From NCBI GenBank assembly GCA_046314035.1, contig JBKBXP010000001.1, positions 580 through 64,579 on the forward strand: a stretch of 64,000 nucleotides of DNA, in the 5' to 3' direction. Under the pieces are notes generated by a model, which saw only the letters and a list, made by a program, of their open reading frames with translations, was not told where the DNA came from and did not search any database. The position numbers were made by a program, and so were the translations under genes. Below are positions 14,479 through 58,061 of this stretch, piece by piece (position 1 is the first letter of the stretch; every line of letters begins with the position of its first letter). The DNA is from Pseudorhizobium sp. Its GTDB lineage: Bacteria; Pseudomonadota; Alphaproteobacteria; Rhizobiales; Rhizobiaceae.

Positions 14479-14511
14479 GTTCTTGACATGTTCTTGAATC
14501 TGACTTAGCTT
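14479..14511 (+). promoter_or_regulatory. LexA box overlapping the -35 of the relaxosome operon promoter
   Basis: GTTC-TTGACAT-GTTC (14479-14493) contains TTGACA (14483-14488); 17 bp spacer; TAGCTT -10 (14506-14511). Confidence 0.75.
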
Positions 14512-14564
14512 CGATCTCGCCTTTCGCAGTGTGAACCGGGCTCCTGACCACAAGGAGTCCGTGC

Positions 14565-14897
14565 ATGACACGGCCAATCTGTCTCCAGGTTTACATCTCA
14601 AGCGAGCTCAGCTCGCTGATCCGCAAAGCTGCCAAGGCCAAGGGGATCAGCATGAGCGAGTGGGTTCGCGCCTTGCTCGCCAATGCCTGCACCGAGGACG
14701 AGCTTGCCTCGCGGCTCGACGCTTCCATCGAACGCATTTCCCGCCGCTCTGTGTTCCTCATGGTCGGTGTGGATGCGCTGCTGGCAGGGCACCCCGATCA
14801 CGCTTTGCGCGGTCGAGCGCACCAGGCTTACATGCGCAAATGCAAGGAGCTCGGCCTTTCCGCCGCTAGCGGCGAGGGAGGTTCCGATGAAGCGTAA
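14565..14897 (+). CDS. Ribbon-helix-helix relaxosome accessory protein (TrwA/CopG-like)
   Basis: LQVYISSELSSLIRKAAKAKGISMSEWVRALL RHH pattern; lies between oriT and the coupling protein. Confidence 0.75.
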   Translation: MTRPICLQVYISSELSSLIRKAAKAKGISMSEWVRALLANACTEDELASRLDASIERISRRSVFLMVGVDALLAGHPDHALRGRAHQAYMRKCKELGLSAASGEGGSDEA

Positions 14898-17283
14898 CCT
14901 CGTCAATTTCACGCGCGGCAGCCAGCTGCTCGGACACTTCAGCTTCATGTTCGCGGCGGGTCTCAAGGGCCCACTGATCGTTGCCGCTCTCGTGATCTCA
15001 TGGACCTCCTGGTGGACCATTTCGGCAGGGCTCACCGATCACGAAGTCTATCTGGTCTGGATACGGATCTATGCCGCCATCTACGGCTTCATGGAGTTCG
15101 ATCCCGCAAAGCGTATCACTCTGGAAACCGCCTTTGGCGCGACCATCCAGTTTCCGATTGCCCAGCTCGATCGCTACCCGCCGGTTGCCCATGCGTGGGA
15201 GAAGCTGACGGATTTGCTGACCAGTGCCTTGTGGCGTTCCGGGTTCCTGTTGGTCCCCGCCTTTGCCGTCTTCTACTGGTTCGCCGAGCGGTTCGGAGGC
15301 CGGTCAAAGGAGCGCAAACACGAGCGCGGCGCGATGCTGGTCACGCTTCCCGAGCTCGTCGACGAACTGACCACCCACAACCGGCGCGAGCGCACCCGTG
15401 AGCTCGATTCCGCGCTGGGCTGGAAATGGCGGCTCAGCCTGCGGCGGGAAATTGTCCGGGTCTTTCCTTATAGGCCATCGCATATCGCCACGGTCGCTTA
15501 TCCCTGGCGGCTCGAGCAGAGCCACGCGATGCTCATTGGCACGACCGGTATGGGCAAGACCGTGGCGATCTCCGACATGATCGCGGAAGCAAGAGCCAAG
15601 GGTCAGCGCTGCGTTGTCTTCGATCTGACTGGCGCCTTTATCGAGCACTTCCATGCCGCCCATTGCGACATCATTCTGAACCCGCTCGATGCGCGCTGCC
15701 CCCAGTGGAACCTGTTCGATGAATGCCGTTCCGAAGGCGAGTTCTGGGCCGCCGCGGACGCCCTCGTGCCTCACGACGGAGGCGGTGAAGCCCAGTTCTG
15801 GGTGATTGCTGCCCGCGCGCTGTTCGTCGAATTCTGCCTCAAACTCGTGGCCGAGGGCAGGGCGACCAACGAAGCCTTGGCGCGCGAGCTGATGACCGCG
15901 GACCTCTCGCGCGTTCATGCCATGATGCGCGGAACGATCGCCGATCCGCTGACCGCGCCGGAAGCTGCACGCATGGCGGAATCGATCCGGGCCGTCTTCA
16001 ACGTGAACGCCAAGGCGCTCAAGCTGCTGCCCACTGCCGGACCTCGTTTTTCGGTTCGCCAATGGATCGAAGACGGGGCCGATAGCGCTCGAAGCGAAGG
16101 CTCGATCCTGTTCATTTCTGCCCGCTATGTCGACATGAGCGTCTGCGCGCAGTTGCTCACGCTCTGGCTCGACACGGCAATGAATACGCTGATGACGATG
16201 CCCCGTACTCGCGATCTCAAGTGCTGGTTCTTCGTCGATGAGCTGGGGGCGTTGCACCGCCTGCCGGCCCTCGAGAAAGGCTTGCAGACGGCGCGCAATT
16301 TCGGCGGCGCGATTGTTCTTGGTCTTCACGCTTATGCCAAGCTCAAGGAGGTCTACGGCGAGAACATGGCGATGACGCTGGCATCGCTCGCCCGGACCAA
16401 ACTGATCCTCGGAACCGCCGACCGCGAAACGGCCACCTGGTGCTCCGACTTCATCGGCCATCGCCAGGTCAGGGACATGGAGGAGGGCTACACTTACGGC
16501 TACAACAATGCCCGTGATGCGGTCAGCCTCACCCCGCGCAAGCATATCGAGCCGCTCCTGCTGCCCGACCAGCTGATGAACCTGCCGCGCCTGTCGGGGT
16601 ACATCAAGTTCCCCGACGGCTTTCCCGCCGCACCGGTCAAACTCAAGCCCGTTGACCGACCCAAGCGAGCGGAGACGTTCATCGCCAGGGTCAAGGAAAG
16701 CCCGAAGGCGAGGGGCACCGTGCCCCATTCGTCGACAGAGCAGGAAGAGCAGCCGGCAGTGGCGACAGGCAACGAGCATCCCTCGTCCAACGATGACGGA
16801 GCGGGCAAACCGGTCGTCCCAAAGCAGGGAGAGCTGGCCCTGGATCAGGGTGCGCGAGCCGCGCCGAAACAGGAGCCTGACGTGCCATCCAAGGACCTTG
16901 AACGGGCAGTTGAACGCACACCCGGCAAGACGTCAAAGGAGCAGAAACCGGCAGCTCACTCCGGGCAAGAGAAGGCTGGCAAGGCCAAGAAGGAGCGATC
17001 ACACACCAGAACCGATGCCCCGCCGCGAAAGACTGGACCTTCCGCCCGCCCACTTCTCCCGACGGGCGAAGCCGCAGCGATTCCGGATCAGCCAGCTTCT
17101 GCCAAGGGTGGAGCCCGGCCCGGCGCGCCCGACACTAAGGCGCTGCAAGAGGACAAGCCGGACACCCCGAAGAGCCGAGGCTCCAGCGATGCCGCCGCGC
17201 GCAAGCTGATGCTCGAGGATGGTCTGCGGGAGCATGAGCCTCCGCCGATCACTGGTCCGGATCTTGGCGACATGGAGATGTGA
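14887..17283 (+). CDS. traD: Type IV coupling protein TraD/TrwB
   Basis: Two N-terminal TM segments, Walker A GTTGMGKT, Walker B FVDELGAL, long low-complexity tail; ATG 14887 after GGGAGG. Confidence 0.92.
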   Translation: MKRNLVNFTRGSQLLGHFSFMFAAGLKGPLIVAALVISWTSWWTISAGLTDHEVYLVWIRIYAAIYGFMEFDPAKRITLETAFGATIQFPIAQLDRYPPVAHAWEKLTDLLTSALWRSGFLLVPAFAVFYWFAERFGGRSKERKHERGAMLVTLPELVDELTTHNRRERTRELDSALGWKWRLSLRREIVRVFPYRPSHIATVAYPWRLEQSHAMLIGTTGMGKTVAISDMIAEARAKGQRCVVFDLTGAFIEHFHAAHCDIILNPLDARCPQWNLFDECRSEGEFWAAADALVPHDGGGEAQFWVIAARALFVEFCLKLVAEGRATNEALARELMTADLSRVHAMMRGTIADPLTAPEAARMAESIRAVFNVNAKALKLLPTAGPRFSVRQWIEDGADSARSEGSILFISARYVDMSVCAQLLTLWLDTAMNTLMTMPRTRDLKCWFFVDELGALHRLPALEKGLQTARNFGGAIVLGLHAYAKLKEVYGENMAMTLASLARTKLILGTADRETATWCSDFIGHRQVRDMEEGYTYGYNNARDAVSLTPRKHIEPLLLPDQLMNLPRLSGYIKFPDGFPAAPVKLKPVDRPKRAETFIARVKESPKARGTVPHSSTEQEEQPAVATGNEHPSSNDDGAGKPVVPKQGELALDQGARAAPKQEPDVPSKDLERAVERTPGKTSKEQKPAAHSGQEKAGKAKKERSHTRTDAPPRKTGPSARPLLPTGEAAAIPDQPASAKGGARPGAPDTKALQEDKPDTPKSRGSSDAAARKLMLEDGLREHEPPPITGPDLGDMEM

Positions 17284-17320
17284 GCATGTCGCTGAGTTCC
17301 TCGGTATCGGGGACCGACCC

Positions 17321-20248
17321 ATGCTGTCGGTAGCCAATGTCCGCACAGCAGGCGGCGCGGCCAACTACTTCGCTGCCGACAATTACTACACGCGGGCTGA
17401 TGCCGATCGCTCGGGTGAATGGCTGGGCAAGGGCGCTGCGGCGCTCGGGCTCAAAGGGGCCGTCGACGCGCGGCAGTTCGAGGCAATCCTCAAGGGGATG
17501 TTGCCTGACGGGAGCCGCGTCGGCAGTGACAACCGGGCGCACCGGGCGGGGACCGATCTCACCTTTTCGATGCCGAAAAGCTGGTCGGTCCTCGCTCTGG
17601 TGGGCGGCGACAAACGGATCCTCGACGTCTACGCTGCGGCCGTCCGGGAAACCCTGCGCTGGGCCGAGAAGAACCTCGCCGAGACCCGGATGGAGGTTCG
17701 CGGCAGGGAGCGAGCCGTTCAGACCGGCAACTTTGCGATCGCGCTGTTCCAGCACGACACCAATCGCAACCAGGAGCCCAACGCTCACTTCCATGCCGTC
17801 ATTGCCAATGTGACGAGAGGGGCCGATGGCAAATGGCGGGCATTGCGCAACGACAAGCTCTGGCAGCACAATACCCTCCTCAATGCCATGACGATGGCGC
17901 GGTTTCGTCTGAGCGTCGAAAAGCTCGGCTACGAGGTCGGTGAGTTCGGCAAGCACGGCAATTTCGAGGCCGTCGGGGTGCCCAAGCCGGTCCGCGATGC
18001 CTTCAGTTCCCGGCGAGCTGAAATCCTGGAAGCGGCCGCCCAGATGAACTTCTCAGGGCCAGGCGTGCTCGATGCTGCAACCTTGATGACCCGGGTCGAC
18101 AAGGGGCGGATCGAAGATCGCGATGCGCTGACCCAGAAGTGGCAGGAAACGTCCGCAAGGTTGGGCTTTGATCCCGCCACCGTCATCGCCCAAGCCAATG
18201 CTCGCAGTGCGCAGGATCTTGGCAATGTGACCGGCTTGAGGCCAACGATGCGCGCGCTTGTTCGCAATGTTCAGGCCCTTGCAACCTTCTTTGCCGAGCG
18301 CCTTGGCCTGCGCGAAGGTGACCCGCTGATACCTAGCAGGCTGACCAATCGCAGCGTCGAGCAGGTCGCCGCAATTCATGCGGTCGCCTCGGCTGTCCGG
18401 CATCTCGGCGAGCGGGAAGCCGCCTTCACTCGGGCCGACATCTACCGTGCAGCGCTTGGCTTTGCGCTGCCGACTTCACTTGCAGACATCGAGCACCGCG
18501 TCGACCAGCTGCTCCGCCAGGGGCATCTGGAGAGGGGCAGGGGCGCCGACCGGGAACTGCTGACGACACGCGATGCTATCAGCCTCGAACAGCGCATCAT
18601 TGCTGGGGTCGAAAAGGGGCGCGGTGCCGCGCCGGCGATTGTCTCTCCTGAGCTTGCAGGGACCCGTCTGCAGGCCCTATCCCAGATCAAATACGGGCTG
18701 ACCCTGAATGCGGGACAGGAAGGGGCAGGACGTCTGCTGCTTGGTTCGAACAACCGGATCGTCGCGATCCAGGGCGTCGCGGGTGCAGGCAAGAGCACGG
18801 TCCTCAAACCTGTCGCCGATATCCTGCGCGAGGAGGGCCGGGCCGTGCTCGGGCTCGCTGTGCAGAACACGCTGGTCCAGATGCTCGAGCGCGATACGGG
18901 TATTCCATCGATGACGGTGTCGCGGTTCCTCGCTCGGCACCGCGACCTCCTGGAAAGAGCCGATGCGGACCGTCTCGCCGAGGCGCGGGCCGACATGCGC
19001 GGCACCGTCGTGCTGCTCGACGAGGCCTCGATGGTCGGGAATGCCGACAAGGAAAAGCTGGTGCGCCTGGCAAACCTGCTCGAACTCGGCCGCTTTGCGA
19101 GCATTGGTGACCGCAAGCAGCTGGGCGCAGTCGATGCCGGAAAGCCCTTCGATGTGATGCAGCAGGCCGGCATTGAGACGGCCGTCATGAGCACCAATCT
19201 TCGCGCGCGCAGCGAAGGCCTTCGTGAAGCGCAACAGGCAGCGCAACAAGGGCGCATCCAGGACGCCATGCGCCACCTCGCACCCCAGGTGATCGAGGTG
19301 GGGAACGATGCTGCTGTCGATGCCGCCGCCGCTTGGTTGTCGCTCTCGTCAGCCGGGCGCGAGACAACTGCAATCTATGCTTCAGGCCGAATCCTGCGCA
19401 GCGCCGTGAACGAGGCTGTGCAGACCGGCCTCAAAGCGAGCGGGGAGATTGGGCCAGTATCAATGCGGCTCCAGACCCTCTCGCGCGTCAATGTAACCCG
19501 TGAGGAGCTGCGCTATGCGAGCACCTATGCCCCCGGCATGGTGGTCGATGTCGCGCGGCGTCAGCGCAGCCAGGGCCTTGCAGCAGGCGAATACCGGGTG
19601 GTCGGAACTGATGTGGCGCGCGAGCGGGTCACGCTGGAGAACGCGCGTGGCCGCCAGTTCGAGTTTCGTCCCGGTCAGATCAGGCCGCAAGGTGAGCAGG
19701 ATCCGCTACGCCTGTTCGAAGTTCGTGCCCTCGACATTTACACCGGTGACAGGATCCGTTGGACCGACACCGATCACCAGCGGGGCCTGCTCAATGCCGA
19801 CCAGGCCCGGATTGTCGCAGTCGACAAAGAGGCTGTCGTGCTGAAGACATCCTTGGGCGCAGAGCACAGGCTCGAACGCGACGATCCAATGCTGCGACGT
19901 CTCGATCTCGCCTATGCGCTCAATGCCCATATGGCACAGGGGCTGACTTCCGATCGCGGCATTGCTGTCATGGACAGTCGCGAGCGTAATCTGGCCAACC
20001 AGCAGACGTTCCTGGTGACAGTCACGCGGCTGCGCGATGGTCTCACGCTCTTTGTCGATAATGCTGGCAAGCTCGAAGCGGCGGTCGAACGCAATGCTGG
20101 CATGAAGCGCTCGGCGTTGGAAACGGTCGATCTCCTCCGCGATGCGGCAGCCAAAGGGCAGGCCAAAGATCGTGTCGATCCTGCACCGGAACGCACGCCG
20201 CCAGAACTTGACCGGTCGATCACGAAGCCGTTCGAGATCGGCATCTAG
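17321..20248 (+). CDS. trwC: MOBF relaxase-helicase TrwC/TraI
   Basis: N-terminal NYF..DNYY tyrosines, DLTFSMPKSWS, HUH motif HDTNRNQEPNAHFH, helicase GVAGAGKS and DEASM. Confidence 0.95.
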   Translation: MLSVANVRTAGGAANYFAADNYYTRADADRSGEWLGKGAAALGLKGAVDARQFEAILKGMLPDGSRVGSDNRAHRAGTDLTFSMPKSWSVLALVGGDKRILDVYAAAVRETLRWAEKNLAETRMEVRGRERAVQTGNFAIALFQHDTNRNQEPNAHFHAVIANVTRGADGKWRALRNDKLWQHNTLLNAMTMARFRLSVEKLGYEVGEFGKHGNFEAVGVPKPVRDAFSSRRAEILEAAAQMNFSGPGVLDAATLMTRVDKGRIEDRDALTQKWQETSARLGFDPATVIAQANARSAQDLGNVTGLRPTMRALVRNVQALATFFAERLGLREGDPLIPSRLTNRSVEQVAAIHAVASAVRHLGEREAAFTRADIYRAALGFALPTSLADIEHRVDQLLRQGHLERGRGADRELLTTRDAISLEQRIIAGVEKGRGAAPAIVSPELAGTRLQALSQIKYGLTLNAGQEGAGRLLLGSNNRIVAIQGVAGAGKSTVLKPVADILREEGRAVLGLAVQNTLVQMLERDTGIPSMTVSRFLARHRDLLERADADRLAEARADMRGTVVLLDEASMVGNADKEKLVRLANLLELGRFASIGDRKQLGAVDAGKPFDVMQQAGIETAVMSTNLRARSEGLREAQQAAQQGRIQDAMRHLAPQVIEVGNDAAVDAAAAWLSLSSAGRETTAIYASGRILRSAVNEAVQTGLKASGEIGPVSMRLQTLSRVNVTREELRYASTYAPGMVVDVARRQRSQGLAAGEYRVVGTDVARERVTLENARGRQFEFRPGQIRPQGEQDPLRLFEVRALDIYTGDRIRWTDTDHQRGLLNADQARIVAVDKEAVVLKTSLGAEHRLERDDPMLRRLDLAYALNAHMAQGLTSDRGIAVMDSRERNLANQQTFLVTVTRLRDGLTLFVDNAGKLEAAVERNAGMKRSALETVDLLRDAAAKGQAKDRVDPAPERTPPELDRSITKPFEIGI

Positions 20249-20293
20249 CGTCCCACTGTCCTCATGCGTCCGCACATGGCCGATTGACGCGAA

Positions 20294-20308
20294 GTTCTTT
20301 ATTTGTTC
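20294..20308 (+). promoter_or_regulatory. LexA box
   Basis: GTTC-TTTATTT-GTTC, downstream of TTGACG (20284) and 10 nt before ATG 20319. Confidence 0.7.
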
Positions 20309-20318
20309 TCATTGACCC

Positions 20319-20558
20319 ATGCCCCGAATCTCCGATGATATCCTCCTTACTCATCTCGAAGTCGCGCTGGCCGTTGCGCCGGAGCACACGCTCGTTCGTC
20401 TCAATGCCGATGATCCACGCGCCCAGCGCAACGCCAGGGTCGATCTGGCTCGTCATCTTGTCGAGCGCATGCGCGGTTTCACCATCGAAGGCGACAGCCA
20501 TGGCGGTCCAGGCGCGCAGCCGTGCCTGTTTCCGGGCGATCTGTCGCCGATCGGATGA
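20319..20558 (+). CDS. Small hypothetical protein (DUF6771-like), SOS-boxed
   Basis: 79 aa ORF directly downstream of a LexA box. Confidence 0.6.
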   Translation: MPRISDDILLTHLEVALAVAPEHTLVRLNADDPRAQRNARVDLARHLVERMRGFTIEGDSHGGPGAQPCLFPGDLSPIG

Positions 20559-20581
20559 ACTGGTAGTCTTCCCGAGGAGGG

Positions 20582-20779
20582 TTACTGTAGTGGCCGGTCC
20601 GGGGCGTTGGAGCTCAGCTGAACAATTCGCTCGGCGATAGCCTGCCATGTCCGAATGCCCGCCTCGTCGCCAGCAAGTGCGAGCGCCCCAATCTGCTCGG
20701 CGACGTGCAAGGGAGCCTTGTCCCCATGAGTTTGCAAGACATGGTTGGCGCAGGCCCAGAGCTCCCAGTCGCTCAGCAT
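20582..20779 (-). CDS. Small hypothetical protein (DUF6961-like)
   Basis: MLSDWELWACANHVLQTHGDKAP...WQAIAERI; start overlaps the upstream stop. Confidence 0.65.
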   Translation of the reverse strand: MLSDWELWACANHVLQTHGDKAPLHVAEQIGALALAGDEAGIRTWQAIAERIVQLSSNAPDRPLQ

Positions 20780-21084
20780 CAGCGCAGCAGGCTGACGACA
20801 CCGCCAACCGCCGCGTAAAGACCGTAGGCGACGAAGGCTGCGGCAAGGAGGAGTTCGAGCCGGAGTTTGAAGGCAGTCGGACGAGGCTGTCCGGCTGGCC
20901 ATATCTGGTCACAGACAAATCCGTTGAACCCCGAACGCTCCCCGACAACTTCGACGCGAGCGCCGATGAATTTCCGTACCTGGCGGGTGTTGTCGAGTTC
21001 CCAAGTCCCGCCACCGTCAGTTCGCAGCACCGGTCCGTTGGCCGCCCATTCGACGATACCGGTCAGATGCGTGGTGCTGCTCAC
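20779..21084 (-). CDS. OB-fold-like membrane-anchored protein (DUF5818-like)
   Basis: GPVLRTDGGGTWELD...GARVEVVGERSGF plus a C-terminal TM helix; GTGA overlap with the nuclease gene. Confidence 0.65.
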   Translation of the reverse strand: MSSTTHLTGIVEWAANGPVLRTDGGGTWELDNTRQVRKFIGARVEVVGERSGFNGFVCDQIWPAGQPRPTAFKLRLELLLAAAFVAYGLYAAVGGVVSLLR

Positions 21085-21506
21085 CGGCAAGCCGGGCCTT
21101 TCCAGTAGCGATCCCAACGCAGGACCGTGCCGGTCTTGATCATGGCGCATGACAGATCGGCACCTGACGGCAGACGGCACCAGGCAGCGGTCCTGTTTCC
21201 GCCTGCGGACCCCTCGGAGCGGCATGTCAGCCGCGGACCTCTGACCACCACATGACCGGTCGAAATTGTTCCCTTCGCGCCACCCATCAGCTGTACAAGG
21301 GCGTCGCGCGCTTCAATTGCCGTGGCATTTGGGCAGGGCTGATTGGTGCGGCAGGTGCCGTCCATTTCCCGGGCCGCGATGCCGGCGATCCGCAGGTGAG
21401 GGCCTTCCGCACACCAGACCGGACCGTCTCCATCCCAGACATGAGTCGGTGTGCAGGTAAAGGTCTGTCCGGAAGCGACGATCGAAGCGGCAAGGAGGGC
21501 AAGCAT
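21081..21506 (-). CDS. Secreted thermonuclease (SNase-like)
   Basis: Signal-like N-terminus, VWDGDG, LRIAGIAARE and DLSCAMIKTG motifs. Confidence 0.75.
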   Translation of the reverse strand: MLALLAASIVASGQTFTCTPTHVWDGDGPVWCAEGPHLRIAGIAAREMDGTCRTNQPCPNATAIEARDALVQLMGGAKGTISTGHVVVRGPRLTCRSEGSAGGNRTAAWCRLPSGADLSCAMIKTGTVLRWDRYWKGPACR

Positions 21507-21518
21507 CAGAGAACCACC

Positions 21519-22160
21519 TTAGAGCGCCCGTCCGAACCAGAGAACCCGTCCGACGATATTGAGCGTGCGTTTCTCGAGGCCGCGCCAGCTTGGATAGGCC
21601 GGGTTGTCGCTCAGAACCGACGCCCGCTTGCCCTGCGGTTCGAGGGCAATGCGCTTTACGCTCAACATGTCGTCCATCCGCAGGACATAGATCCCGTCTC
21701 TCAGCCGCGACTGGCCATCCCCGAGATCGACCATAACCTCGTCGCCATCGTGGAGGGTGGGCTCCATGGAGTCCCCATGGACCGCGATAATCGAGAGGCT
21801 CGATGCCTTGCTCGCGGTCAGTCGGCGAAGCCACTTCTCGTCGAAGCCGAACTGCGCGGATTTGGCTTCCATTTCGGCCAGAGCGCCATGGCCGGCCGAT
21901 GCCTCGACATTGAGCAAAGGCACATGGACCAGTTCGACGACCGGGCCTAAGCGGCGGGCAGGGGCTCCAAGAACCTTCTCATCGACCCCGAAAAATCGCG
22001 CCAGAACCGAGCGGTCCTGCTCGTCCAGCTGCCTCGGGCTGCCGCGCCGAATATACTGCTGGATGTAAGCGGCATTGCGCCCCAACAGGCGCGAAACCGA
22101 GGAGTAATTCACCCCTCGTTGCTGGATCAGTTCGTCCAGGGCTCTCCGTGCGTCGTCCAT
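21519..22160 (-). CDS. cI/LexA-like repressor with HTH and S24 autopeptidase domain
   Basis: HTH, cleavage loop EASAGHG, catalytic GDSMEP Ser and SVKRI Lys. Confidence 0.9.
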   Translation of the reverse strand: MDDARRALDELIQQRGVNYSSVSRLLGRNAAYIQQYIRRGSPRQLDEQDRSVLARFFGVDEKVLGAPARRLGPVVELVHVPLLNVEASAGHGALAEMEAKSAQFGFDEKWLRRLTASKASSLSIIAVHGDSMEPTLHDGDEVMVDLGDGQSRLRDGIYVLRMDDMLSVKRIALEPQGKRASVLSDNPAYPSWRGLEKRTLNIVGRVLWFGRAL

Positions 22161-22184
22161 GACTGCCAGTCCTATCGCGGGCAC

Positions 22185-22241
22185 CTAGGAAAATCGATCC
22201 TAGACTCTAGGAAGCCTTCCTAGTAAGAACATAACAGGAAC
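22185..22241. promoter_or_regulatory. Divergent switch region: two CTAGGA..TCCTAG palindromes plus a LexA box
   Basis: CTAGGA-N7-TCCTAG (22185-22203), CTAGGAAG-C-CTTCCTAG (22207-22223) and GAAC-ATAACAG-GAAC (22227-22241). Confidence 0.75.
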
Positions 22242-22260
22242 TCAAGCTAAAAGCGAGTCT

Positions 22261-22491
22261 ATGGCGATGGAGCTATTGGAGCAGATCGAGGCATATCTAG
22301 CGCGAACACGGACGTCGCCGAGCACCTTCGGCAGACTAGCGGTTGGTGACCCTAGGTTCGTGGTTGATCTTCGGTCAGGACGAAAGCCAAGACGTCAAAC
22401 CCATGATCGCGTGAAGCTTTACCTTATGGCGCAGGGCGGGGCCGGTTACCCCAAATTCAAAACCTGCCCAGTGCATGAGGGCTTTCAATAG
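22261..22491 (+). CDS. Cro-like small HTH protein
   Basis: LLEQIEAYL...SPSTFGRLAVGDPRFVVDLRSGR; divergent from the S24 repressor. Confidence 0.8.
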   Translation: MAMELLEQIEAYLARTRTSPSTFGRLAVGDPRFVVDLRSGRKPRRQTHDRVKLYLMAQGGAGYPKFKTCPVHEGFQ

Positions 22492-22701
22492 CTACCACTG
22501 ATTAATTCGCTTTCGCGACGAATGCGCGAATCGCGGCTATTCAAAGGGAGCGGCGCTCCCCCCTTTTCTTGTTTGTAGGCTTGTTACGGATCAGTGATCG
22601 GGTCTCGGGGTTGCGATCCGTCCTCACAGGCGTATTTGTCGGCGGGCATGGCGCTTTCAACCTAGAAGATTGCCCTGCCTTGTGCCGAAATTGTAGAATA
22701 A

Positions 22702-22730
22702 GCCTATATATAGGATATCAAAAAATAGGC
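22702..22730 (+). promoter_or_regulatory. Palindromic operator upstream of the XRE gene
   Basis: CCTATATATAGG (22703-22714) and GCCTAT/ATAGGC inverted repeat in an AT-rich stretch. Confidence 0.45.
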
Positions 22731-37058: not shown

Positions 37059-37978
37059 GCTGCGCTTCTCCACGATCCGCTCCTTGGAAAGGCGGAAGGG
37101 ATAAGTTCTGTCACATCGATATCTTGCTTTCGCTGGATCTGACGCAGTCCGGCAGTATCGACCCACTGCCATGCGCCGTCTGTCACGTCATCGATCCGCA
37201 TGAGGCGTGTAATGACACTGTCTTCGTCAAGTTTGAACACGCGACCTGGGGAGCCTGCGGAATAGCAGACTTGTTCGGCAGTCATAGTCGTAGCGCCGCC
37301 GCTTCGCTCCCAGAAACTGCCAAGCGCGTAAGCGAACACAGCGTCGTGCAGCGTCGGCTTGGGGCCGCGCACGAACTCGTACCATCCACCCACGCGAGCT
37401 TCGCGGATGAGGGCGAGTTCGGCCAACAGTGGCTCCGCTGCATCCTCGCTGAAAGTCTCACCTTTGCGGACGTAGCTTCGCAGGAAAACTTCGATGTCAC
37501 GCTTCAGTGTGCCGCGCGTAGCCCGCCATCCTCGGGCGCTGACCACGCCGAAGAGCTCGTCGAGCAATGTAGTCGGGTTAAACTCGATCGCGTTTAGCAC
37601 GTTGAAAGCGTAGAAAGTTGTCGTGGCTTTCGTCTGGGAGCTGGCGATGTGCCAGTGGACGAGCCAGATCGTTGCTGCCTGCTCCAAGTATGGATCGAGG
37701 CCGTCATCGGCGAGAATAGCGTGACCTAGGGCTGTGGGCCGGATAACCCGGTCTACTTCTTCAAAAAAGCCCGATGCAGTAGCCCAGTACCGCATCGAAA
37801 CGGCCATATTGCGTCCCACGCCAAACCGAGTGATGGCCTCCTGTTCCTGGAATGTTCCAATGGGGGCCTCGGCTCCCACGGCATCATAGGCTTTTTTCAG
37901 CCATAGGAGGCGCAGGGGGAATGTCTCGTGCCCCGCGAACTGTACCTTCGAATCAAGTTTTAAACCATTCCTCGCCAT
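37055..37978 (-). CDS. sspB: SspB (DUF4007) nickase
   Basis: FAGHETFPLR..WLKK, FGVGRNMA.SMRYW and DPYLE DUF4007 signatures. Confidence 0.88.
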   Translation of the reverse strand: MARNGLKLDSKVQFAGHETFPLRLLWLKKAYDAVGAEAPIGTFQEQEAITRFGVGRNMAVSMRYWATASGFFEEVDRVIRPTALGHAILADDGLDPYLEQAATIWLVHWHIASSQTKATTTFYAFNVLNAIEFNPTTLLDELFGVVSARGWRATRGTLKRDIEVFLRSYVRKGETFSEDAAEPLLAELALIREARVGGWYEFVRGPKPTLHDAVFAYALGSFWERSGGATTMTAEQVCYSAGSPGRVFKLDEDSVITRLMRIDDVTDGAWQWVDTAGLRQIQRKQDIDVTELIPSAFPRSGSWRSAA

Positions 37979-37987
37979 AAGGCGACG

Positions 37988-39178
37988 CTACTGGCGAACC
38001 TCTCCAGTAGCAAGCAGTGAACGGTGTATAGCGTCGGAAATCACGTCGATCGCTTTATCGATTTCTGCAGCAGCAGTGTAGCGGTTGCAAAAGATCCGAA
38101 CAACAGAGCGCGCCTCGGTCGCAGAAAATCCAATCGCTTCAAGAACATGCGATGTTCTAATTTGGCCGGCGGTGCAGGCGGAACCTGTAGACAGCGAAAC
38201 GTGACGTGCGATCATTGAGCATAGCGCGTCCCCGTCGACGCCGGGGAAAGACACCGCAACACCGCCAGGCACCGTGGGAGCGTGTCTGTTGACTGTCGAA
38301 AGGCGAACCTGCCGGTCGCGGAGACCGTTCAGTAGCTTGGAAATCAGTGCAGACCCATGATTTTGGTCTTCAATCAGACGAGACCGTGCGACTGAAGCGG
38401 CGGCTCCAAAGCCCGCAATGAGTGCGACCGGTTCGGTTCCCGGGCGTGCCCCCGCCTGCTGCCCGCCGCCGAACATTAGCGGTACCGGCTTCGTTGCTCC
38501 CGCTGACACATAAAGCGCGCCGATCCCCATCGGCCCATAACATTTGTGCCCAGACAGGCTAAGGTAATCCACGTCGAGATCGAGCACGTCGACTGCAATC
38601 TTACCTACACCTTGGGCTGCATCACAGTGAAACAGCGCTCCGTAGGCGTGCGCAAGTTCGGCCGCCTCTCCGACGGGCTGCACAATCCCAGTTTCATTGT
38701 TCACGAGCATAACTGACGCAAGCAGGACGTCATCCCCCAGCAAATGTCCGAACGCCTCAAGATCAAGAGTTCCGCTTCGATCGACAGGTGCGAACTCCAC
38801 GATAAAACCATGCTTCTTCAGTTGCTCTGCAGGTTCGATCACCGCCTTGTGCTCGATTGCTGAAAGCACGATCCGCCTACGATATGGCTGATGGCCTGCG
38901 ACAGCGTTCACGACGCCCACAATCGCCAGATTGTTTGCCTCGGTCGCACCGGATGTGAAGATGATTTCGCTCGGCGCAGCACCGATCAACTCGGCTACCT
39001 CGGCTCGCCCCTCTGCTATAATGGCGGCAGCCCGCTCACCCGACTGATTTGGGGATCCAGCATTGCCTGGGATATCCCAGACCGCGAGCATTGCGGCCCT
39101 CGCTTCAGGGGCGAGGGGGAGCGAGGCAAACCCATCTAGGTAGATTGATGGGGAATGGTCGGCGTTTCTCATGTTCAT
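37988..39178 (-). CDS. sspA: Cysteine desulfurase SspA (IscS-like)
   Basis: FTSGATEANN, NNETG, HCDAAQ, PLP lysine SGHKCYGP, catalytic STGSAC. Confidence 0.92.
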   Translation of the reverse strand: MNMRNADHSPSIYLDGFASLPLAPEARAAMLAVWDIPGNAGSPNQSGERAAAIIAEGRAEVAELIGAAPSEIIFTSGATEANNLAIVGVVNAVAGHQPYRRRIVLSAIEHKAVIEPAEQLKKHGFIVEFAPVDRSGTLDLEAFGHLLGDDVLLASVMLVNNETGIVQPVGEAAELAHAYGALFHCDAAQGVGKIAVDVLDLDVDYLSLSGHKCYGPMGIGALYVSAGATKPVPLMFGGGQQAGARPGTEPVALIAGFGAAASVARSRLIEDQNHGSALISKLLNGLRDRQVRLSTVNRHAPTVPGGVAVSFPGVDGDALCSMIARHVSLSTGSACTAGQIRTSHVLEAIGFSATEARSVVRIFCNRYTAAAEIDKAIDVISDAIHRSLLATGEVRQ

Positions 39179-39187
39179 GAGTTGTTC
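39173..39187 (-). promoter_or_regulatory. LexA box over the sspA start
   Basis: GTTC-ATGAGTT-GTTC on the plus strand, overlapping the ATG at 39178. Confidence 0.65.
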
Positions 39188-39671: not shown

Positions 39672-42374
39672 TCACCACTCCTTTACATCATCCGCTGCTT
39701 CTGCACTGGCACCTTGGGCTCCCTTGGTGATTGCGTCCAGACGTCCCCTAGAGTCGGTAATCTTCTGGCGACCGGCCGCCTGAGCCCTTTGCACATCTTC
39801 ACGGACATCGCCGACCCCCACCCGTGGTACTGAACCGGAATCCCCGCCGCCGGTCTGTGCCTGGCGGCGCACCGATCCTGCGCCAGAGACTGCCGGACGG
39901 GATACAGGCTGTCCGGGGACGAGTACGAGGCGCTCGTCGATCCCGTTGCGAAGCTGCTCGGCATAGCTTTCGATGAATTTTGCCTGCAATGCTTGGCCTT
40001 TAGGGCTGAGCTGGAAAGTGACATCGTCGAACCGCGCATTGCCATAGAAATCGCGGTTGCTTTCGATCTCGGCGACACCCCATTCTCGGTAGGCCTGCGA
40101 CAGATTGAGGCTGCCTGTAGCGCTGTTTCCTTCGAAGAAAGACGCCTGGCTTTCGAGACGATTAGCAAGCTCCTCTGCCCGACGAGCTTCGATTGTGAAG
40201 CTCTGTGCTTCTGTCAGAGATGCGTTCATGCCGCTCGCGGTGTTCGAGATCGACGAGCTTGATGAGGTACTGACTGAGCGCACGAACCCATCGCGGGTGC
40301 TCGACCAATTGCGGCTGTCAGACATCTGGGACAGGCTCCCGAAGATCCGCGAACGGTCTTCCGAAGCGATCCCGATATCGCTGTCGGTCCACGTGCGTGT
40401 CCCACCGCCCTTTGCTCCGATGCTTCCAGACAGCACGCCATTTGAAATTCCGGCCTTTGCCCCGGCCTCACCGCCGAGAAACCAAGCAGTAGAGATGTCA
40501 TCGGCGGCCCTGCGCGATAGCCCGAATTGCCGCTGCAGATTGGTCGATGCCTGATCGACTTCGCTGAATGCGGTCTGGATGCTGTCGGAGTTCGAGGTGC
40601 CGGTTGCGCTCTCGAAGGATGCGCCTCGGCTGAACTGGTCTCTCAGCTCGCGGAACTTCGTGACCGCGCTGGTCGTCGATTCCGTTGCGACATTCGCATA
40701 GGTCTCGCTGTTGGCGCGGGCCTGCGATGCCATCGTCGAAAGGCGCGCCGTGAATTCCTGGCCCAGCGTCGGCGTGAAAGGATAGCTGGATGTCGGGATC
40801 TGATCGTAGCTGCCGTCAGGAAAGCTCGTGGTCATTGCCCCGGTGTCGCTGAAGGTCCGTGTCTGCGGCGCGCCGTACGTGAAGCTCGGCGCGATCGTCC
40901 CTTGTGCGAACTGGCGGGTGAGGACGCTCGAGTTTTCGAAGCTGGTGTTGCCGAGTGAGACATTGCCGGTGCTCGCCTCTCGGGCCGCTTCCTCGGCCGC
41001 GTTCTGGCTCGGGTTGAGGTAGCTCGTGGCATGGTGGGAAATCGCCATGGCGCCCTTGGCCACACCCCCTGCCAAGAACGGCACCGATGCGATGAGATAG
41101 CCTGCCAGCAGACCGATATCGCTGTTGACGTCGGCCATTCCGGTAAAGCTCGCCAGGCTGAGGCCGTTGCTGCCCGTGACCGCGCTTATGTCGGCCGCGC
41201 CCTTGTACATCAGCATCATGTGGAGGATCACGAACAGCGGTCCCCAGGCCGCGAGATAGAAGAAGCCTGTCACATAGCCCTTGAGTGCGACAGGTCCCGT
41301 CTTGGGGAGAAGGAAGAGCGGGAAAAGCACCGGGAAAAGGGCGTAGAACAGCACGGTCAGCACGACGTTCAGGAGCGGGACCCACTTCATCGCGTTGCTC
41401 GCAATCGAGCCATAGGTCCGTTCGGTCTGAATGTCGGCGCGGGTCTGGGCGTAGACGTCGACATTGCCCGCGCCGCTGGTGCCGGACATCGAATGCATGG
41501 CCTGGCTCATCGCGTTGATGGTCAGCGTCTGCTTGAAGATTTCGGTCGCGTTGGCCGAGACGCCGGTGAGGTACTGATAGGCCACCGGCAGGTCGGCAAA
41601 GAGCTTCGCCTTGGCGAGCGCGGCCGTCTGGTTGGGGTAAAGCTGGCGGCCAAACACCGATCCCATCGCATCGACGAGGCCGGCCCACTGCGCATTGAGC
41701 GTGTCGTAGGCCTCGCGGCAGGTCACGATGTTCGAGCTCACCTGGCCCGAAGTGGCATCCAGGGTCAGGAACCGCTGCGCGCGCGCCTGGCTGCCCGGCG
41801 CGATTGTCGCCCAGATGTCGCCGGTTTCCGCGAGCTCCTTCATCGAGTAGCGGCCGAGCAGCACGTCGTAGAACACGCATTGCCGGAAATGCTCGTCGAG
41901 ATTGGCAGCAAACTCCGGATCGGAAATCCGCAAGGACCGGGTCGCATCGTAGAGCCGCGCGCCGTAGATCATCCCGTTTTTCGAATAGTTGAGATCCCCA
42001 GGCAGGCCGAACACCACTTCTGCCGAGCCCGTCAGATAGTCGCCGACCTGGCTGGTAAAGCTCGCCATCAAAGCCAAGCCCAGCGGCACGTTGCTGACAT
42101 TGGCCGGGGCAAGGCTCGGATTGAGCCGGTCGGTCACATGGACATCGAGCCGCGGCACCATGAGGCAGGAGTAGATGAGCGTTGCGCCGAGGAACCAGTT
42201 GATCCAGGCGCGCCAGTCCTGATTGAACGCAAGGGTCAGGGCGGACAAGCCCAGCCCCATTACCATCACCACCTGGAGCAGGCTCTTGTAGCCCCCGTTG
42301 CCGGTCCAGGCGGCGACTGCCTGGAAGACGTTGACCAGATAGTCCCCGCCGCCGACCGTGAAAATCTCGACCAT
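39672..42374 (-). CDS. traG: F-type mating-pair stabilisation protein TraG
   Basis: MVEIFTVGGGDYLVNVFQAVAA N-terminus, VPLGLA, multiple TM helices, Ser/Ala-rich C-terminal half. Confidence 0.92.
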   Translation of the reverse strand: MVEIFTVGGGDYLVNVFQAVAAWTGNGGYKSLLQVVMVMGLGLSALTLAFNQDWRAWINWFLGATLIYSCLMVPRLDVHVTDRLNPSLAPANVSNVPLGLALMASFTSQVGDYLTGSAEVVFGLPGDLNYSKNGMIYGARLYDATRSLRISDPEFAANLDEHFRQCVFYDVLLGRYSMKELAETGDIWATIAPGSQARAQRFLTLDATSGQVSSNIVTCREAYDTLNAQWAGLVDAMGSVFGRQLYPNQTAALAKAKLFADLPVAYQYLTGVSANATEIFKQTLTINAMSQAMHSMSGTSGAGNVDVYAQTRADIQTERTYGSIASNAMKWVPLLNVVLTVLFYALFPVLFPLFLLPKTGPVALKGYVTGFFYLAAWGPLFVILHMMLMYKGAADISAVTGSNGLSLASFTGMADVNSDIGLLAGYLIASVPFLAGGVAKGAMAISHHATSYLNPSQNAAEEAAREASTGNVSLGNTSFENSSVLTRQFAQGTIAPSFTYGAPQTRTFSDTGAMTTSFPDGSYDQIPTSSYPFTPTLGQEFTARLSTMASQARANSETYANVATESTTSAVTKFRELRDQFSRGASFESATGTSNSDSIQTAFSEVDQASTNLQRQFGLSRRAADDISTAWFLGGEAGAKAGISNGVLSGSIGAKGGGTRTWTDSDIGIASEDRSRIFGSLSQMSDSRNWSSTRDGFVRSVSTSSSSSISNTASGMNASLTEAQSFTIEARRAEELANRLESQASFFEGNSATGSLNLSQAYREWGVAEIESNRDFYGNARFDDVTFQLSPKGQALQAKFIESYAEQLRNGIDERLVLVPGQPVSRPAVSGAGSVRRQAQTGGGDSGSVPRVGVGDVREDVQRAQAAGRQKITDSRGRLDAITKGAQGASAEAADDVKEW

Positions 42375-50139: not shown

Positions 50140-50168
50140 GGAGATAGGGATCCTTTGGTGATGGGGTG

Positions 50169-53521: not shown

Positions 53522-53525
53522 GGGA

Positions 53526-54440: not shown

Positions 54441-55774
54441 TGGGAGTTCCTCACGTAGACGCCGTCGAGGAACACGATCTCGACATCGATGCCGGTCGGC
54501 ATCTCGACGACGGGTTGGTACTGTTCGGCGCGCTCGATCAGGTATTTGCTGACCGTGTCGGCAGCATCGGCGGCGCCCTGGCCAAGCCCGCCGCCGAGGA
54601 TGTCGCCGGCCGAAAGCTTGGAGCGACTGCCGTCGGCGTTGGTCGTGACGCCTGAGAAGACGCTGTTGGCATTGGCGGAGAAGCCGCGCCCGAACCCGCC
54701 GACGATCCCGGCCAGCAGCGCTTGGCTGACGAGGCTGCCTTCGCGGCTCACGACGCGGCCGCGGACCCCGGACTTGCCGGCGAAGCTGATGAAGCCTTTG
54801 ACCTCACTCACCGCGACCCGGCCGCCGGGCTGATCGCAGGTCATGCGGGCGAGTTTCACATAGACCTTCTCGCTGCTGAGATCGCCGCGCGCCGCGCCGT
54901 TCACCACGCAGCCCTGGATCCGGGTGGTGAGAACCTTCCCGTTCTGCATGACCGATCGGGCTGGACCGGTGATCCTGAGGACCACGGGCAGCGGATCGGT
55001 CTGGCTGACGACGCCTGCCGAGGCATCGACGCCGACAATCACCCGGGCCGAAGCGTAGGAATTGGGGGGCAGGTAATCCGGCGAATCTTCGACGACGACC
55101 GGGGGCGCCTCGGGGCGGCCCACTCTGAGGCCGTTTGTCCCAGCCTTGTCGGTGCTGAAGCTCATCAGCTTCACCTCGCCCGGTGAAGGGATCATGCCGC
55201 CTTGCGGCTCACCCCCTGCGGACACACCGCCTGGCTGGGACGAACGGGCTCGCGCGTCATAGCCGCCCGCCTGCGGCCCATAGGCCGGTGGCGGTACAGC
55301 GGATGCCGTCGTCGCGGGCTGCGCGGCGAGCCGTGTCTTCAACTCAGCGTTCTCTGCAGAAATGGCATCAATCGCGGCCTGTCCATCGACCCGCATGGCC
55401 TGGTTCTCGGCCTTGAGAGCCGCCAGCTGCGCTTCAATCTCCGTCCGCGGGATGCTCCCATCCTTCAGCGCCTTCTGTTCGCGGGTGACGGCATCGAGCC
55501 GGTTGCCGTAGGTCGCGACGAATTCGCGCTGGGACAGATCGCGGTTGACGAGGCCTGCCGTGTCGATCGTCTGCGCCGCATTGGGATCGCCGGTCTTGGG
55601 CTTGTCATCGCCGCCAAGAATGAACCAGCTACCGCCAAGGAGTGCGAGTGCTCCCAGCGACCCCAGCAGCAGCTTCTGCCGGCGCGCGGTGCGGGCGTTG
55701 AGTCCGGAAAGTTCGGACGGCGCGGCGCTCTCGGCCTGCAGAGGGGACGTGCTCGTATTGGCTGCATCAGTCAT
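54437..55774 (-). CDS. traB: VirB10-like TraB
   Basis: TM helix, coiled coil, GDLSSEKVY, GKSGVRGRVVSR, AEQYQPVVE. Confidence 0.92.
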   Translation of the reverse strand: MTDAANTSTSPLQAESAAPSELSGLNARTARRQKLLLGSLGALALLGGSWFILGGDDKPKTGDPNAAQTIDTAGLVNRDLSQREFVATYGNRLDAVTREQKALKDGSIPRTEIEAQLAALKAENQAMRVDGQAAIDAISAENAELKTRLAAQPATTASAVPPPAYGPQAGGYDARARSSQPGGVSAGGEPQGGMIPSPGEVKLMSFSTDKAGTNGLRVGRPEAPPVVVEDSPDYLPPNSYASARVIVGVDASAGVVSQTDPLPVVLRITGPARSVMQNGKVLTTRIQGCVVNGAARGDLSSEKVYVKLARMTCDQPGGRVAVSEVKGFISFAGKSGVRGRVVSREGSLVSQALLAGIVGGFGRGFSANANSVFSGVTTNADGSRSKLSAGDILGGGLGQGAADAADTVSKYLIERAEQYQPVVEMPTGIDVEIVFLDGVYVRNSQ

Positions 55775-56525
55775 GACCGGTCTCCCCGCTTGCGCCGACA
55801 ACAAAGGCCGTGGTGCTGGCCCCGGGTTCGAGCTTCGGTTCGGCGATCGAAAGCGCGAGCGTGTCGCGGGGTGCGAGATCGCGCTCGGCGAGCGTCACGG
55901 GTTTCGATCCGCGATTGTGGATGCGGACGACCTTCCCGGTGAGGCTGGCACCGCGATAATCTGCGATGAGCTGGATCTCGAGATCGCCGACCCGGGCGGG
56001 CATGGCCGCCCTTTGCCGGACCTCAAAGCCGTCGACAGTCCGGTCATTGGCCATCGCCTGGATGAGCCTGACGGCGCTTGTTTCGAGCGGCGTCTCGTTC
56101 TCCCAATCCGCGGCGCGGTTCTTCGCGATCGCCGGGTTGGTCACGAAGATCTGCGCCGCCGGGATCTGCTCGACCCGGCACGCGATCTTGTAAACAAAGC
56201 CCTTCTTGGTAGTGGCGAAGAAGCTGATGGACCGGGCCGCGTAAGTTTCCGGCACCGACACGTAAATGTCGCCGCGCACCGGCTCGTTGGTCACGGCAAA
56301 GTCGTTGTACGGCGTGCCGGTCGAGATCTTGGAGACGCTGGCGAACTGGTCGTCGACCAATGCGAAGCGGGTCAGTTCGCGCGCCGAAACGCTGCATTCG
56401 ATCGCGGCGCCATCGGCGGCCTGCTTGAACTGGTCGGCCGCATGGGCAGCCTCGGCTGTTACGGCAAGCAGCGCCGCCGCGCTCAGAAGTAGGACTCGTG
56501 CGTGGGCCGCTGATCGGTAAGCCAT
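55767..56525 (-). CDS. traK: Secretin-like TraK
   Basis: Signal peptide, GDIYV, SFFATT.KG; position between traE and traB. Confidence 0.88.
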   Translation of the reverse strand: MAYRSAAHARVLLLSAAALLAVTAEAAHAADQFKQAADGAAIECSVSARELTRFALVDDQFASVSKISTGTPYNDFAVTNEPVRGDIYVSVPETYAARSISFFATTKKGFVYKIACRVEQIPAAQIFVTNPAIAKNRAADWENETPLETSAVRLIQAMANDRTVDGFEVRQRAAMPARVGDLEIQLIADYRGASLTGKVVRIHNRGSKPVTLAERDLAPRDTLALSIAEPKLEPGASTTAFVVGASGETGHD

Positions 56526-57097
56526 CACTGGGCCTCCTTCGATTTGTCCTGTGGGGGGAGCTGGGCGAAGCCAGCCAGCGCCAGGCGCAGGCCGCTGTAA
56601 GTCCAGCTGAAGCGGAAGCGGCGCTCGTCACTCGCAATCACCTGCGCGCCGACAAACGTCTTGAGCGTGCCCGTAACATCCGAGGTGAGGCCCTTGGGAT
56701 CGACAGTCATCGACCGGATCACGAATGCCTGGGTGACATCCGAGCCCCGCTGCTCTTCGACGATCCGGACGAGCTCGGCCTTGAGGCGGCCATAGCTTGC
56801 AGGATCAGCGAGCTTCAGGATCTCGTTCATCCAGTAATCGAGGCCTTCCGGACTGCGATTGAGAAGAACAAGGGCCGCATCGCGGGTGACGAGCTCAAGA
56901 TAATCGGCCTCGACCCCGGCACTGCTCAAGGTGAGCGTTTTGGGGACGGTCGGAACCAGCACCACTTCGCGGTCCCGGGTAGCGGCAAGGCTCCCAGCGA
57001 TGACCAATGCGAGGCCAAGGCCCGCGCTGGTCAGCGCAAAGAGGTTTCGCTGGCGTAGCAGCGATTGCTGACGTTCGTGGGATATGTCGGAAAACAT
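56525..57097 (-). CDS. traE: TraE
   Basis: TM helix, VVLVP, YLE..RD...LLN.SP, G.LKTFVG. Confidence 0.9.
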   Translation of the reverse strand: MFSDISHERQQSLLRQRNLFALTSAGLGLALVIAGSLAATRDREVVLVPTVPKTLTLSSAGVEADYLELVTRDAALVLLNRSPEGLDYWMNEILKLADPASYGRLKAELVRIVEEQRGSDVTQAFVIRSMTVDPKGLTSDVTGTLKTFVGAQVIASDERRFRFSWTYSGLRLALAGFAQLPPQDKSKEAQ

Positions 57098-57107
57098 GGG
57101 CTTCCCC

Positions 57108-57395
57108 TCAACCGGCAAGCAGTCGGCAGTGAGAAGGCGGCGTTGCCTTGAGACCCAGAAATCCTGCAGGCAGATACCAGTATGCGGCATGGGCTACCCA
57201 GGAACTGGCGCGTCCTGCTTTTGCCTTTCGCAATGCGAACCAGGCGCCGAAGGCGACTATGATGCCGATAAAGATATGCTGGGTGAGGATCCCCCAGGTG
57301 AAGGGGGCCAGCATTCCCGCGAACTCGTCGATGGTCCAAAAGCCGATAAGCTCCGGGTCATCGAGCCGTCGAGGAATGATGTATGGGTCTGCCAT
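57108..57395 (-). CDS. traL: TraL
   Basis: YIIPRRLDDP...WTIDE and HAAYWYLP. Confidence 0.92.
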   Translation of the reverse strand: MADPYIIPRRLDDPELIGFWTIDEFAGMLAPFTWGILTQHIFIGIIVAFGAWFALRKAKAGRASSWVAHAAYWYLPAGFLGLKATPPSHCRLLAG

Positions 57396-57421
57396 GGCGA
57401 CGCCGCCTTCTCTTGCCGCGC

Positions 57422-57766
57422 TCAGATGACCGCGGTCACGACCGAGGTGACGATCGGAACACCCGTGCCGACACCGATGCCGACACCAACCGGAACGGCG
57501 ACCTGGCCGAGCGAAAAACGCCCGGATGCCAGACCGATCAGGCCGCCAGCGAGGCTGAGAACCGTGATGATCTTGCCGCCCGAGCCTTCCAGAAAGTCCG
57601 TGAACTTCGTGAGGGCAGGGGTGAAGGTCGTGTCAGCGCCGGCATAGGCGGCGCTCGCCGCAAGCGCCGCGATTGCGACCGGGATGGCAATGTTGAGGGC
57701 ACTGCCAAGTTTCTTTGGGCCGAGACCCGTGGCGCTGGCGCGCCGGGGGTGGGTGAGAGACTGCAT
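57422..57766 (-). CDS. traA: Conjugative pilin TraA/VirB2
   Basis: Leader ending AYA, two hydrophobic helices; first gene of the tra operon. Confidence 0.82.
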   Translation of the reverse strand: MQSLTHPRRASATGLGPKKLGSALNIAIPVAIAALAASAAYAGADTTFTPALTKFTDFLEGSGGKIITVLSLAGGLIGLASGRFSLGQVAVPVGVGIGVGTGVPIVTSVVTAVI

Positions 57767-57805
57767 GTGAAGCTCCGGTTGGAGGGGTTGTCACAGCGTA
57801 CTTGC

Positions 57806-57851
57806 GTTCGCTGTGTGTTCCACATGCATCTAGGAAATGTTTGTAGGAAAG
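57806..57851 (-). promoter_or_regulatory. tra operon control region: LexA box plus two TAGGAAA motifs
   Basis: GTTC-GCTGTGT-GTTC (57806-57820); CTAGGAAAT (57830) and TGTAGGAAAG (57842). Confidence 0.7.
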
Positions 57852-58028
57852 TGTCGAGCGGGAATCCCGCCTGGATGTGGAAGGATGCGGACGCAACTTT
57901 TGCAGTCCGACGCTCCAAACCAGCGATAACGACGCTAAACCAGTTATTTTATGTCGGTAGATACCGCCGCAGCTGACGGGATTCGGCGACGACTCGGGTA
58001 GAGGAACTGAGTCGCCTCTAAACGAGAC

Positions 58029-58061
58029 GTTCCTCGTCTGTTCTTTTTATTTTCCTACATG
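58029..58061 (+). promoter_or_regulatory. LexA box plus TAGGAAA motif upstream of the HTH/AlpA unit
   Basis: GTTC-CTCGTCT-GTTC (58029-58043); ATTTTCCTACATG (58049-58061). Confidence 0.7.

Follow-up and report, generated by a model that had tools for sequence, protein, structure and literature searches.

Introduction

Direct control by the LexA repressor of the host is well known for phages and integrons (PMC9578287), and for self-transmissible integrative elements reviews describe sensors of the SetR or ImmR type (PMC9578287, PMC4542580). Here we analysed a 64-kb stretch of DNA (the window; bases 580-64579 of contig C1 of an assembly labelled Pseudorhizobium sp.) that belongs to a putative integrative conjugative element. 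This element has a TrwC relaxase of the MOBF type and F-type mating genes, and relatives of it are found in many Sphingomonadales genomes. We consider it likely, judging from the sequence and its conservation, that operators for host LexA sit directly on the transfer operons and regulators of this element and that DNA damage would release them.

In Salmonella genomic island 1 (SGI1), LexA control of the promoter of the master activator sgaDC was confirmed by electrophoretic mobility shift assay and reporter fusions (PMC9927553). SGI1 and the element described here resemble each other as integrated, transferable elements; a host LexA site inside the element and the SOS release of transfer genes are demonstrated for SGI1 and predicted here. 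SGI1 is mobilizable only, belongs to Gammaproteobacteria and carries one functional site, a CTG-N10-CAG box, on its master activator. Unlike SGI1, the present element has alphaproteobacterial direct repeats not only on regulators but directly on the operons for the relaxase and the mating pore, and these boxes coexist with a cleavable repressor encoded by the element itself.

SXT senses damage only through SetR, upstream of the SetCD activators (PMC4542580, PMC9578287), and LexA boxes on SXT tra operons are not described in the literature examined. Like SXT/R391, the present element encodes a lambda-cI-like self-cleaving repressor divergent from a cro-like gene, together with F-type mating genes (TraG_N, TraN, TraC, TraH), and is predicted to respond to SOS induction. 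It differs in its MOBF TrwC relaxase; no FlhDC-type activator was found among the proteins scanned, and judged by the SetR-SetCD cascade and backbone that define SXT/R391, the element lies outside that family, though no search for DNA similarity aimed at SXT/R391 records was made.

Combined use of host LexA and an own regulator at the same control region, as predicted here, has parallels in the CTX phage of Vibrio cholerae, where LexA and the phage repressor RstR act at one promoter, and in phage GIL01, where LexA acts with a phage co-factor (Fornelos et al., cited in PMC9578287). These are phages with one or two LexA-controlled promoters, as opposed to a conjugative element with at least five candidate ones. 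The host SOS regulon of Alphaproteobacteria uses GTTC-N7-GTTC (da Rocha et al. 2008, as listed in PMC9578287). The boxes of the element share with that regulon the direct repeat, a T at position 11 (T11) and a frequent T after the second half-site, but the genes they stand on belong to a mobile element and serve transfer, regulation and defence modification instead of repair. LexA boxes on transfer operons of an alphaproteobacterial element were not found described in the literature, of which most subscription-journal papers were not covered. Co-option of host LexA by mobile elements is thus a known theme; what appears to be new here is the presence of putative LexA operators on structural transfer operons and regulators.

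LexA-type boxes in the window

The window comes from an assembly of 626 contigs (82% complete, GC 63%), on which we ran our own codon-bias gene caller (3,825 genes, 88% of the sequence covered). GTTC-N7-GTTC was sought on both strands, with 100 dinucleotide-preserving shuffles as control. Seven perfect boxes were found:

14479-14493, + strand: LexA-type box GTTCTTGACATGTTC, enclosing a TTGACA -35-like hexamer, 72 nt before the ribbon-helix-helix (RHH) gene
20294-20308, + strand: LexA-type box GTTCTTTATTTGTTC, 11 nt upstream of the small gene (79 aa) that closely follows trwC
22227-22241, - strand: LexA-type box in the intergenic switch between the S24 repressor and the cro-like gene
37843-37857, + strand: box inside sspB (DUF4007), encoding a conserved T-F-Q-E stretch
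39173-39187, + strand: LexA-type box at the sspA start codon, with which it overlaps (sspA, for the cysteine desulfurase of the SspABCD DNA-phosphorothioation operon, lies on the - strand)
57806-57820, + strand: LexA-type box 40 nt upstream of traA
58029-58043, + strand: LexA-type box 74 nt upstream of the helix-turn-helix (HTH) gene

The original prediction, made from the letters of the window, had listed six perfect boxes; all six are present, and the one at 37843 had been missed. It had estimated about one to two chance matches in 64 kb. The shuffles contained 1.68 boxes on average and none of the 100 reached seven, while the whole assembly holds 111 boxes (29.7 per Mb), giving 1.8 expected in 64 kb and P(>=7) = 0.003. 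The GC content of about 62% that the prediction had guessed is right (0.56-0.67 along the window, 0.63 in the genome).

Our own gene calls place 36 of the boxes of the genome in intergenic DNA. Six of these are in the window, against 0.38 expected from intergenic DNA elsewhere (P(>=6) about 3e-6). The boxes are therefore not equally frequent in coding DNA: six of the seven fall within just 5,360 intergenic bases. These six lie 11-82 nt from start codons, and their intergenic location would place them in promoter position. The boxes also share an internal base. All seven have T11 (GTTC-N6-TGTTC), compared with 12 of 74 intragenic boxes elsewhere (P about 3e-6).

Match to the host SOS motif

That the repeat is the alphaproteobacterial LexA box, as had been proposed, agrees both with the GTTCN7GTTC box published for Caulobacter (PMC9578287) and with its presence at recA, lexA and uvrA promoters. 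The assembly studied here has a perfect box upstream of recA, and further ones at the divergent ssb/uvrA pair, a DinB-type polymerase gene, imuA, two radical-SAM repair genes, a UvrD-type helicase gene and comM. T11 was present in eight of nine such host SOS sites and a T followed the second half-site in six of nine, giving the 3' form TGTTCT; the latter base is found in five of the seven window boxes. The box at 20294 and that of the host ssb/uvrA pair agree in all 15 bases. A standard lexA with a perfect box just upstream is present in five genomes with related elements, and their recA genes also have a box, of the T11 type. These matches suggest that the boxes are most likely bound by host LexA.

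A further box in the assembly, outside the window, was observed at position 14744 of contig C8, where GTTCTTGACTTGTTC lies 38 nt upstream of an AbrB/MazE-PIN toxin-antitoxin pair. Its design is that of the promoter of the DNA-processing (mob) operon at 14479, with TTGAC embedded between the half-sites.

Conservation across related elements

A TrwC search of species-representative genomes yielded 80 loci (1.59 Mb), nearly all from Sphingomonadales, with identities of 56-97%. Of the 218 perfect boxes that they contain, 170 occupy one of three homologous promoter sites, namely before the RHH gene (64 of 69 loci), before the small gene that follows trwC (41 of the 41 loci having that gene) or before the repressor, at the switch (65 of 66). 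The density of the other 48 boxes, 0.030 per kb, is that of the genome background. For the two remaining backbone positions, the genomes behind 40 of the TrwC loci were searched with the pilin protein, and the best 30 loci were used, giving 31 aligned sequences. The half-sites of the traA box were perfect in 26 of the 31 and those of the HTH box in 30. The recurrent backbone promoters with a box thus number five, namely RHH-traD-trwC, the small gene after trwC, the S24-repressor/cro switch, traA and HTH-alpA.

Within the boxes, conservation was unevenly distributed. At the HTH box it was 0.996 for the half-sites and 1.0 for T11, but 0.65 for the spacer; the small-gene box had 1.0 for the half-sites and 0.87 for the spacer, and the switch box 0.99 and 0.86. 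Eight further loci were examined, including the most distant clade (TrwC 56-57% and HTH protein 36-41% identical), in which the traA and HTH boxes persist as islands amid diverged spacer sequence. The informative pattern in these alignments is that of fixed half-sites with drifting spacers, rather than the locus counts. Positional conservation in related Sphingomonadales elements, named in the original prediction as a way to check it, was thus found in about 80 elements, with invariant half-sites and varying spacers.

Outside the conserved positions, 15 of the 48 boxes were of the T11 type. Extra T11 boxes were seen in variable regions of other family members, at L005:15212, L014:15217, L004:4109 and 6214, L016:8023, L023:7286, L073:17105, L077:13922 and L050:17785, a hint that the regulon may at times extend to cargo promoters in these elements. 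One element copy with all three alphaproteobacterial-type boxes (L022) is on a contig labelled Acidovorax delafieldii, a betaproteobacterium. Betaproteobacterial LexA is expected to read a different box, and this copy is either contamination or a natural case of the element without its host repressor.

The repressor of the element and a second conserved motif

The element encodes a candidate SOS sensor of its own, and a second conserved motif was found beside three of the LexA-type boxes:

21519-22160, - strand: self-cleaving repressor of 213 aa, with a C-terminal Peptidase_S24 domain and an N-terminal HTH domain
22185-22223, no strand: two conserved CTAGGA...TCCTAG inverted repeats, candidate operators of the repressor of the element
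57830-57849, + strand: two conserved direct TAGGAAA repeats adjoining the traA box
58050-58057, + strand: TTTCCTAC motif, a conserved single copy just downstream of the HTH box

The repressor matches Peptidase_S24 (PF00717, E = 5e-18), and its presumed cleavage site (Ala89-Gly90) and Ser131/Lys169 dyad are invariant in 14 homologues. The repressor gave no match to LexA_DNA_bind (PF01726) when scanned directly, nor did it when whole carrier genomes were scanned, and the similarity between the repressor and the LexA of one carrier was insignificant and confined to the protease domain. For residues 1-76 the predicted fold has five helices and no strand (pLDDT, the predicted local distance difference test, 73.5, moderate), with lambda and 186 cI repressors as its best structural matches; a sequence search of the repressor against solved structures gave no match. 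A Proteus mirabilis repressor is 32% identical over the full length. We considered this homologue as a possible SetR and rejected it: because its neighbours are cII, DnaB and NinG, it is the cI of a lambdoid prophage. By its sequence and modelled fold, the repressor of the element is of the self-cleaving lambda-cI/SetR-like type and not LexA-like.

The second motif, (C/G)TAGGAA or TTCCTA(G/C), occurs in a mixed arrangement: inverted at the switch, direct at traA and single at HTH-alpA. It may be bound by a regulator encoded by the element, the cI-like repressor being the likeliest candidate at the inverted repeats. The contrast with SXT/R391 drawn in the original prediction, where SOS would act on the present element through host LexA and on SXT through its own SetR, was therefore overstated, as the element has a SetR-like S24 repressor and a conserved motif beside three of its boxes. 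A pair of copies of the second motif was also noted at 6302-6316, before a parB-like gene, in a variable segment.

Boxes in the ssp cargo and near-boxes

The original prediction had also placed a defence system in the regulon. The cargo contains an SspABCD-type operon (cysteine desulfurase, DUF4007 protein, a large unassigned protein and a PAPS (3'-phosphoadenosine-5'-phosphosulfate)-reductase-like protein), and the box at sspA is real. It recurs over the sspA ATG in one relative, L132 (SspB 91% identical), with a different spacer and diverged upstream sequence, but is absent from ssp systems of 36-55% identity, other Sphingomonadales included. The sspB box at 37843 is found as the same in-frame site in L132 and in L123 (SspB 55% identical, with a synonymous change). 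Coding constraint is therefore its simplest reading, and this box is probably a by-product of the coding sequence. With one box, kept in one close relative only, the link between LexA-type boxes and the defence system is plausible but thin.

Matches with up to one mismatch number 18 in the window, seven of them being the perfect boxes, against 11.2 expected, and one-mismatch boxes as a class were set aside since they are not clearly enriched over chance. The two one-mismatch copies that had been pointed out, at 6246 and 39402, do exist but gained no support from relatives. The former lies in a variable segment missing from the 93%-identical contig C79, and the latter has no counterpart in L132 (compared by eye).

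Proposed mechanism and alternative explanations

Positional conservation, intergenic concentration and the match to the host motif all favour what the original prediction had put forward, host-type LexA operators on the DNA-processing operon, the mating-pair operon and regulators. In an undamaged cell LexA would occupy all five backbone promoters and block transcription, which would keep DNA processing and the mating pore silent, and with them the HTH-AlpA pair, which probably acts as an activator or in excision. The cI-like repressor would act in parallel, probably through the TAGGAA/TTCCTA motifs at the switch, traA and HTH-alpA. Upon DNA damage, activated RecA would lead to cleavage of both repressors, and the genes for relaxosome, mating pore and AlpA module would then be freed directly, rather than only by a cascade. 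Since the mob and small-gene promoters carry a LexA-type site alone, they should respond to LexA alone. SOS input is nevertheless probably dual, through LexA and the repressor of the element, because the latter is self-cleaving and has separate conserved motifs. A broader picture, to which we give slightly less than an even chance, is that of a family-wide two-key SOS circuit with LexA on every major transfer promoter and cI-like operators at three of them; the host repressor would serve as a silencer on entry and as a trigger in the donor, and the circuit would restrict the host range to bacteria whose LexA recognises GTTC-N7-GTTC and recruit new cargo such as the DNA-phosphorothioation operon.

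We weighed several other explanations of the boxes. They might be operators of a protein encoded by the element (the S24 repressor, the HTH_31 protein, the cro-like protein or the RHH protein), their likeness to SOS boxes being coincidence or mimicry and the repressor being the sole sensor, as in SXT. In favour of this, genes for a self-cleaving repressor and for three more small DNA-binding proteins are present in the element, one box lies within the promoter region of the repressor itself, and boxes and repressor are both conserved in the family, so that conservation alone does not discriminate. We nonetheless regard this as unlikely: in spacing, T11 and 3' extension (TGTTCT) the sites agree with the SOS boxes of the host, and the repressor has an all-helical HTH domain of the cI type, with no LexA-type domain. 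HTH proteins of the cI type usually bind inverted repeats, and conserved CTAGGA/TCCTAG inverted repeats directly adjoin the switch box. The presence of a box at a cargo gene, sspA, in two elements also speaks against this reading.

Somewhat less probable still is that LexA does bind, but acts chiefly during establishment in a new host, where resident LexA would shut off the transfer genes at once, until the repressor of the element builds up; induction in the donor would be left mainly to the cI-like repressor. Such a division of labour would fit the presence of both repressor systems, the three promoters with both motifs and the fact that any alphaproteobacterial recipient already has LexA; at the mob and small-gene promoters, though, the LexA-type box stands alone, so LexA cleavage should suffice in donors. 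We give very little credence to a reading without any repressor, in which the sites would be a chance cluster or else conserved sequence elements, of the core promoter or of another kind. The mob box does hold a -35-like TTGACA and is itself invariant throughout, and the sspB box is explained by coding constraint, yet four sites have freely varying spacers between fixed GTTC, T11 and GTTC, as in a bipartite protein site, and chance is excluded by the enrichment and by the background-level density of boxes elsewhere in the loci. Promoters of an alternative sigma factor were rejected, as the spacing and variable spacers fit a two-part protein site.

Direct control by host LexA remains the explanation that we prefer, and several observations weigh against it. 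The mob box is invariant at all 15 bases, so its conservation is inseparable from that of the embedded -35-like hexamer, and the most distant clade has no mob box. The loci are related, not independent, and their counts overstate the support. A sigma-70 consensus scan, weighed neither way, did not place canonical promoters over most boxes; because it was mostly negative, we only infer that the boxes overlap core promoters. No lexA was found in this assembly, which is incomplete (82%). The place of the contig in its bin is also uncertain: the recA of the bin is 81-82% identical to the recA of five Sphingomonadales, and the HTH gene of the element was found in none of 400 genomes from the order of the bin, a sample of no use for conservation. 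Either contig C1 is mis-binned or the element is outside its usual order. The argument is intact in both cases because the host motif is common to the alphaproteobacterial SOS genes examined.

If the preferred explanation is true, DNA-damaging conditions would directly raise the transfer of cargo, here a phosphorothioation defence and arsenic-related genes, by a self-transmissible element family present in at least 80 species-level genomes. It would also offer a natural system for asking why an element keeps the host repressor in addition to its own, and would suggest that regulator compatibility limits the host range.

Element make-up and neighbouring genes

The genes named above, assigned where possible by Pfam or NCBIfam, are as follows:

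14565-20248, + strand: DNA-processing operon (RHH protein, coupling protein and relaxase by Pfam/NCBIfam)
14565-14897, + strand: NikA-like RHH gene (Pfam)
14887-17283, + strand: TrwB/TraD coupling protein gene (Pfam)
17321-20248, + strand: TrwC relaxase-helicase gene (Pfam)
20319-20558, + strand: small conserved gene (79 aa) downstream of the box at 20294, with no confident family
22261-22491, + strand: cro-like gene (76 aa), divergent from the repressor, without a Pfam family
57422-57766, - strand: traA-like pilin gene, first of the F-type mating-pair operon, which reaches traG at 39672
58117-58578, + strand: HTH_31 regulator gene, with alpA next
58606-58860, + strand: AlpA-family gene (E = 7e-20), the true start of which is probably a later ATG

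The F-type mating apparatus, from 57766 down to traG at 39672, includes TraB, TraC, TraN, TraH and TraG. The order HTH gene then alpA was kept in 37 of 38 related loci. In public RNA runs, relatives of 14300-22600 are present as assembled contigs covering the stretch, from which no conclusion on expression was drawn.

Many relatives lie on contigs of 1-4 Mb, and the element is therefore probably chromosomal; its putative integrative status is based on this and on the AlpA-family gene. No integrase or attachment site was found within the 70-kb contig. Near-identical DNA in plasmid records was limited to three matches of 50-66 bases, all within the coupling-protein gene, which gave no annotated relative for comparison. 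Elsewhere in the bin, the proteins of contig C79 are 93-96% identical to those from window 1-9500, but the variable segment before its parB-like gene is a different one, and a further conjugative element, more distantly related, lies on contig C2. Several related mobile elements or strains are therefore present in the bin.

On the leading side, window 1-13000 encodes a Strawberry-notch-type helicase, an Xre-RES toxin-antitoxin pair, a DUF4365 protein, a long ParB-like protein, ArdC, a SLOG-family protein, DUF6878 and DUF6915 proteins and SSB, and the both-strand motif search found no perfect LexA-type box there. Past alpA, window 58895-63706 encodes a cold-shock-domain protein, a DksA/TraR zinc finger, a tandem Usp, a SulP/STAS transporter, a NUDIX protein, an FMN reductase (ArsH-like) and a YnfA-family protein, all of them cargo and none with a box. 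A large three-gene set with an FtsK-like ATPase adjoins the ssp operon. The interval between trwC and the repressor (window 20319-21084) holds three small conserved genes, the 79-aa gene under the box and genes for DUF6961 and DUF5818 proteins.

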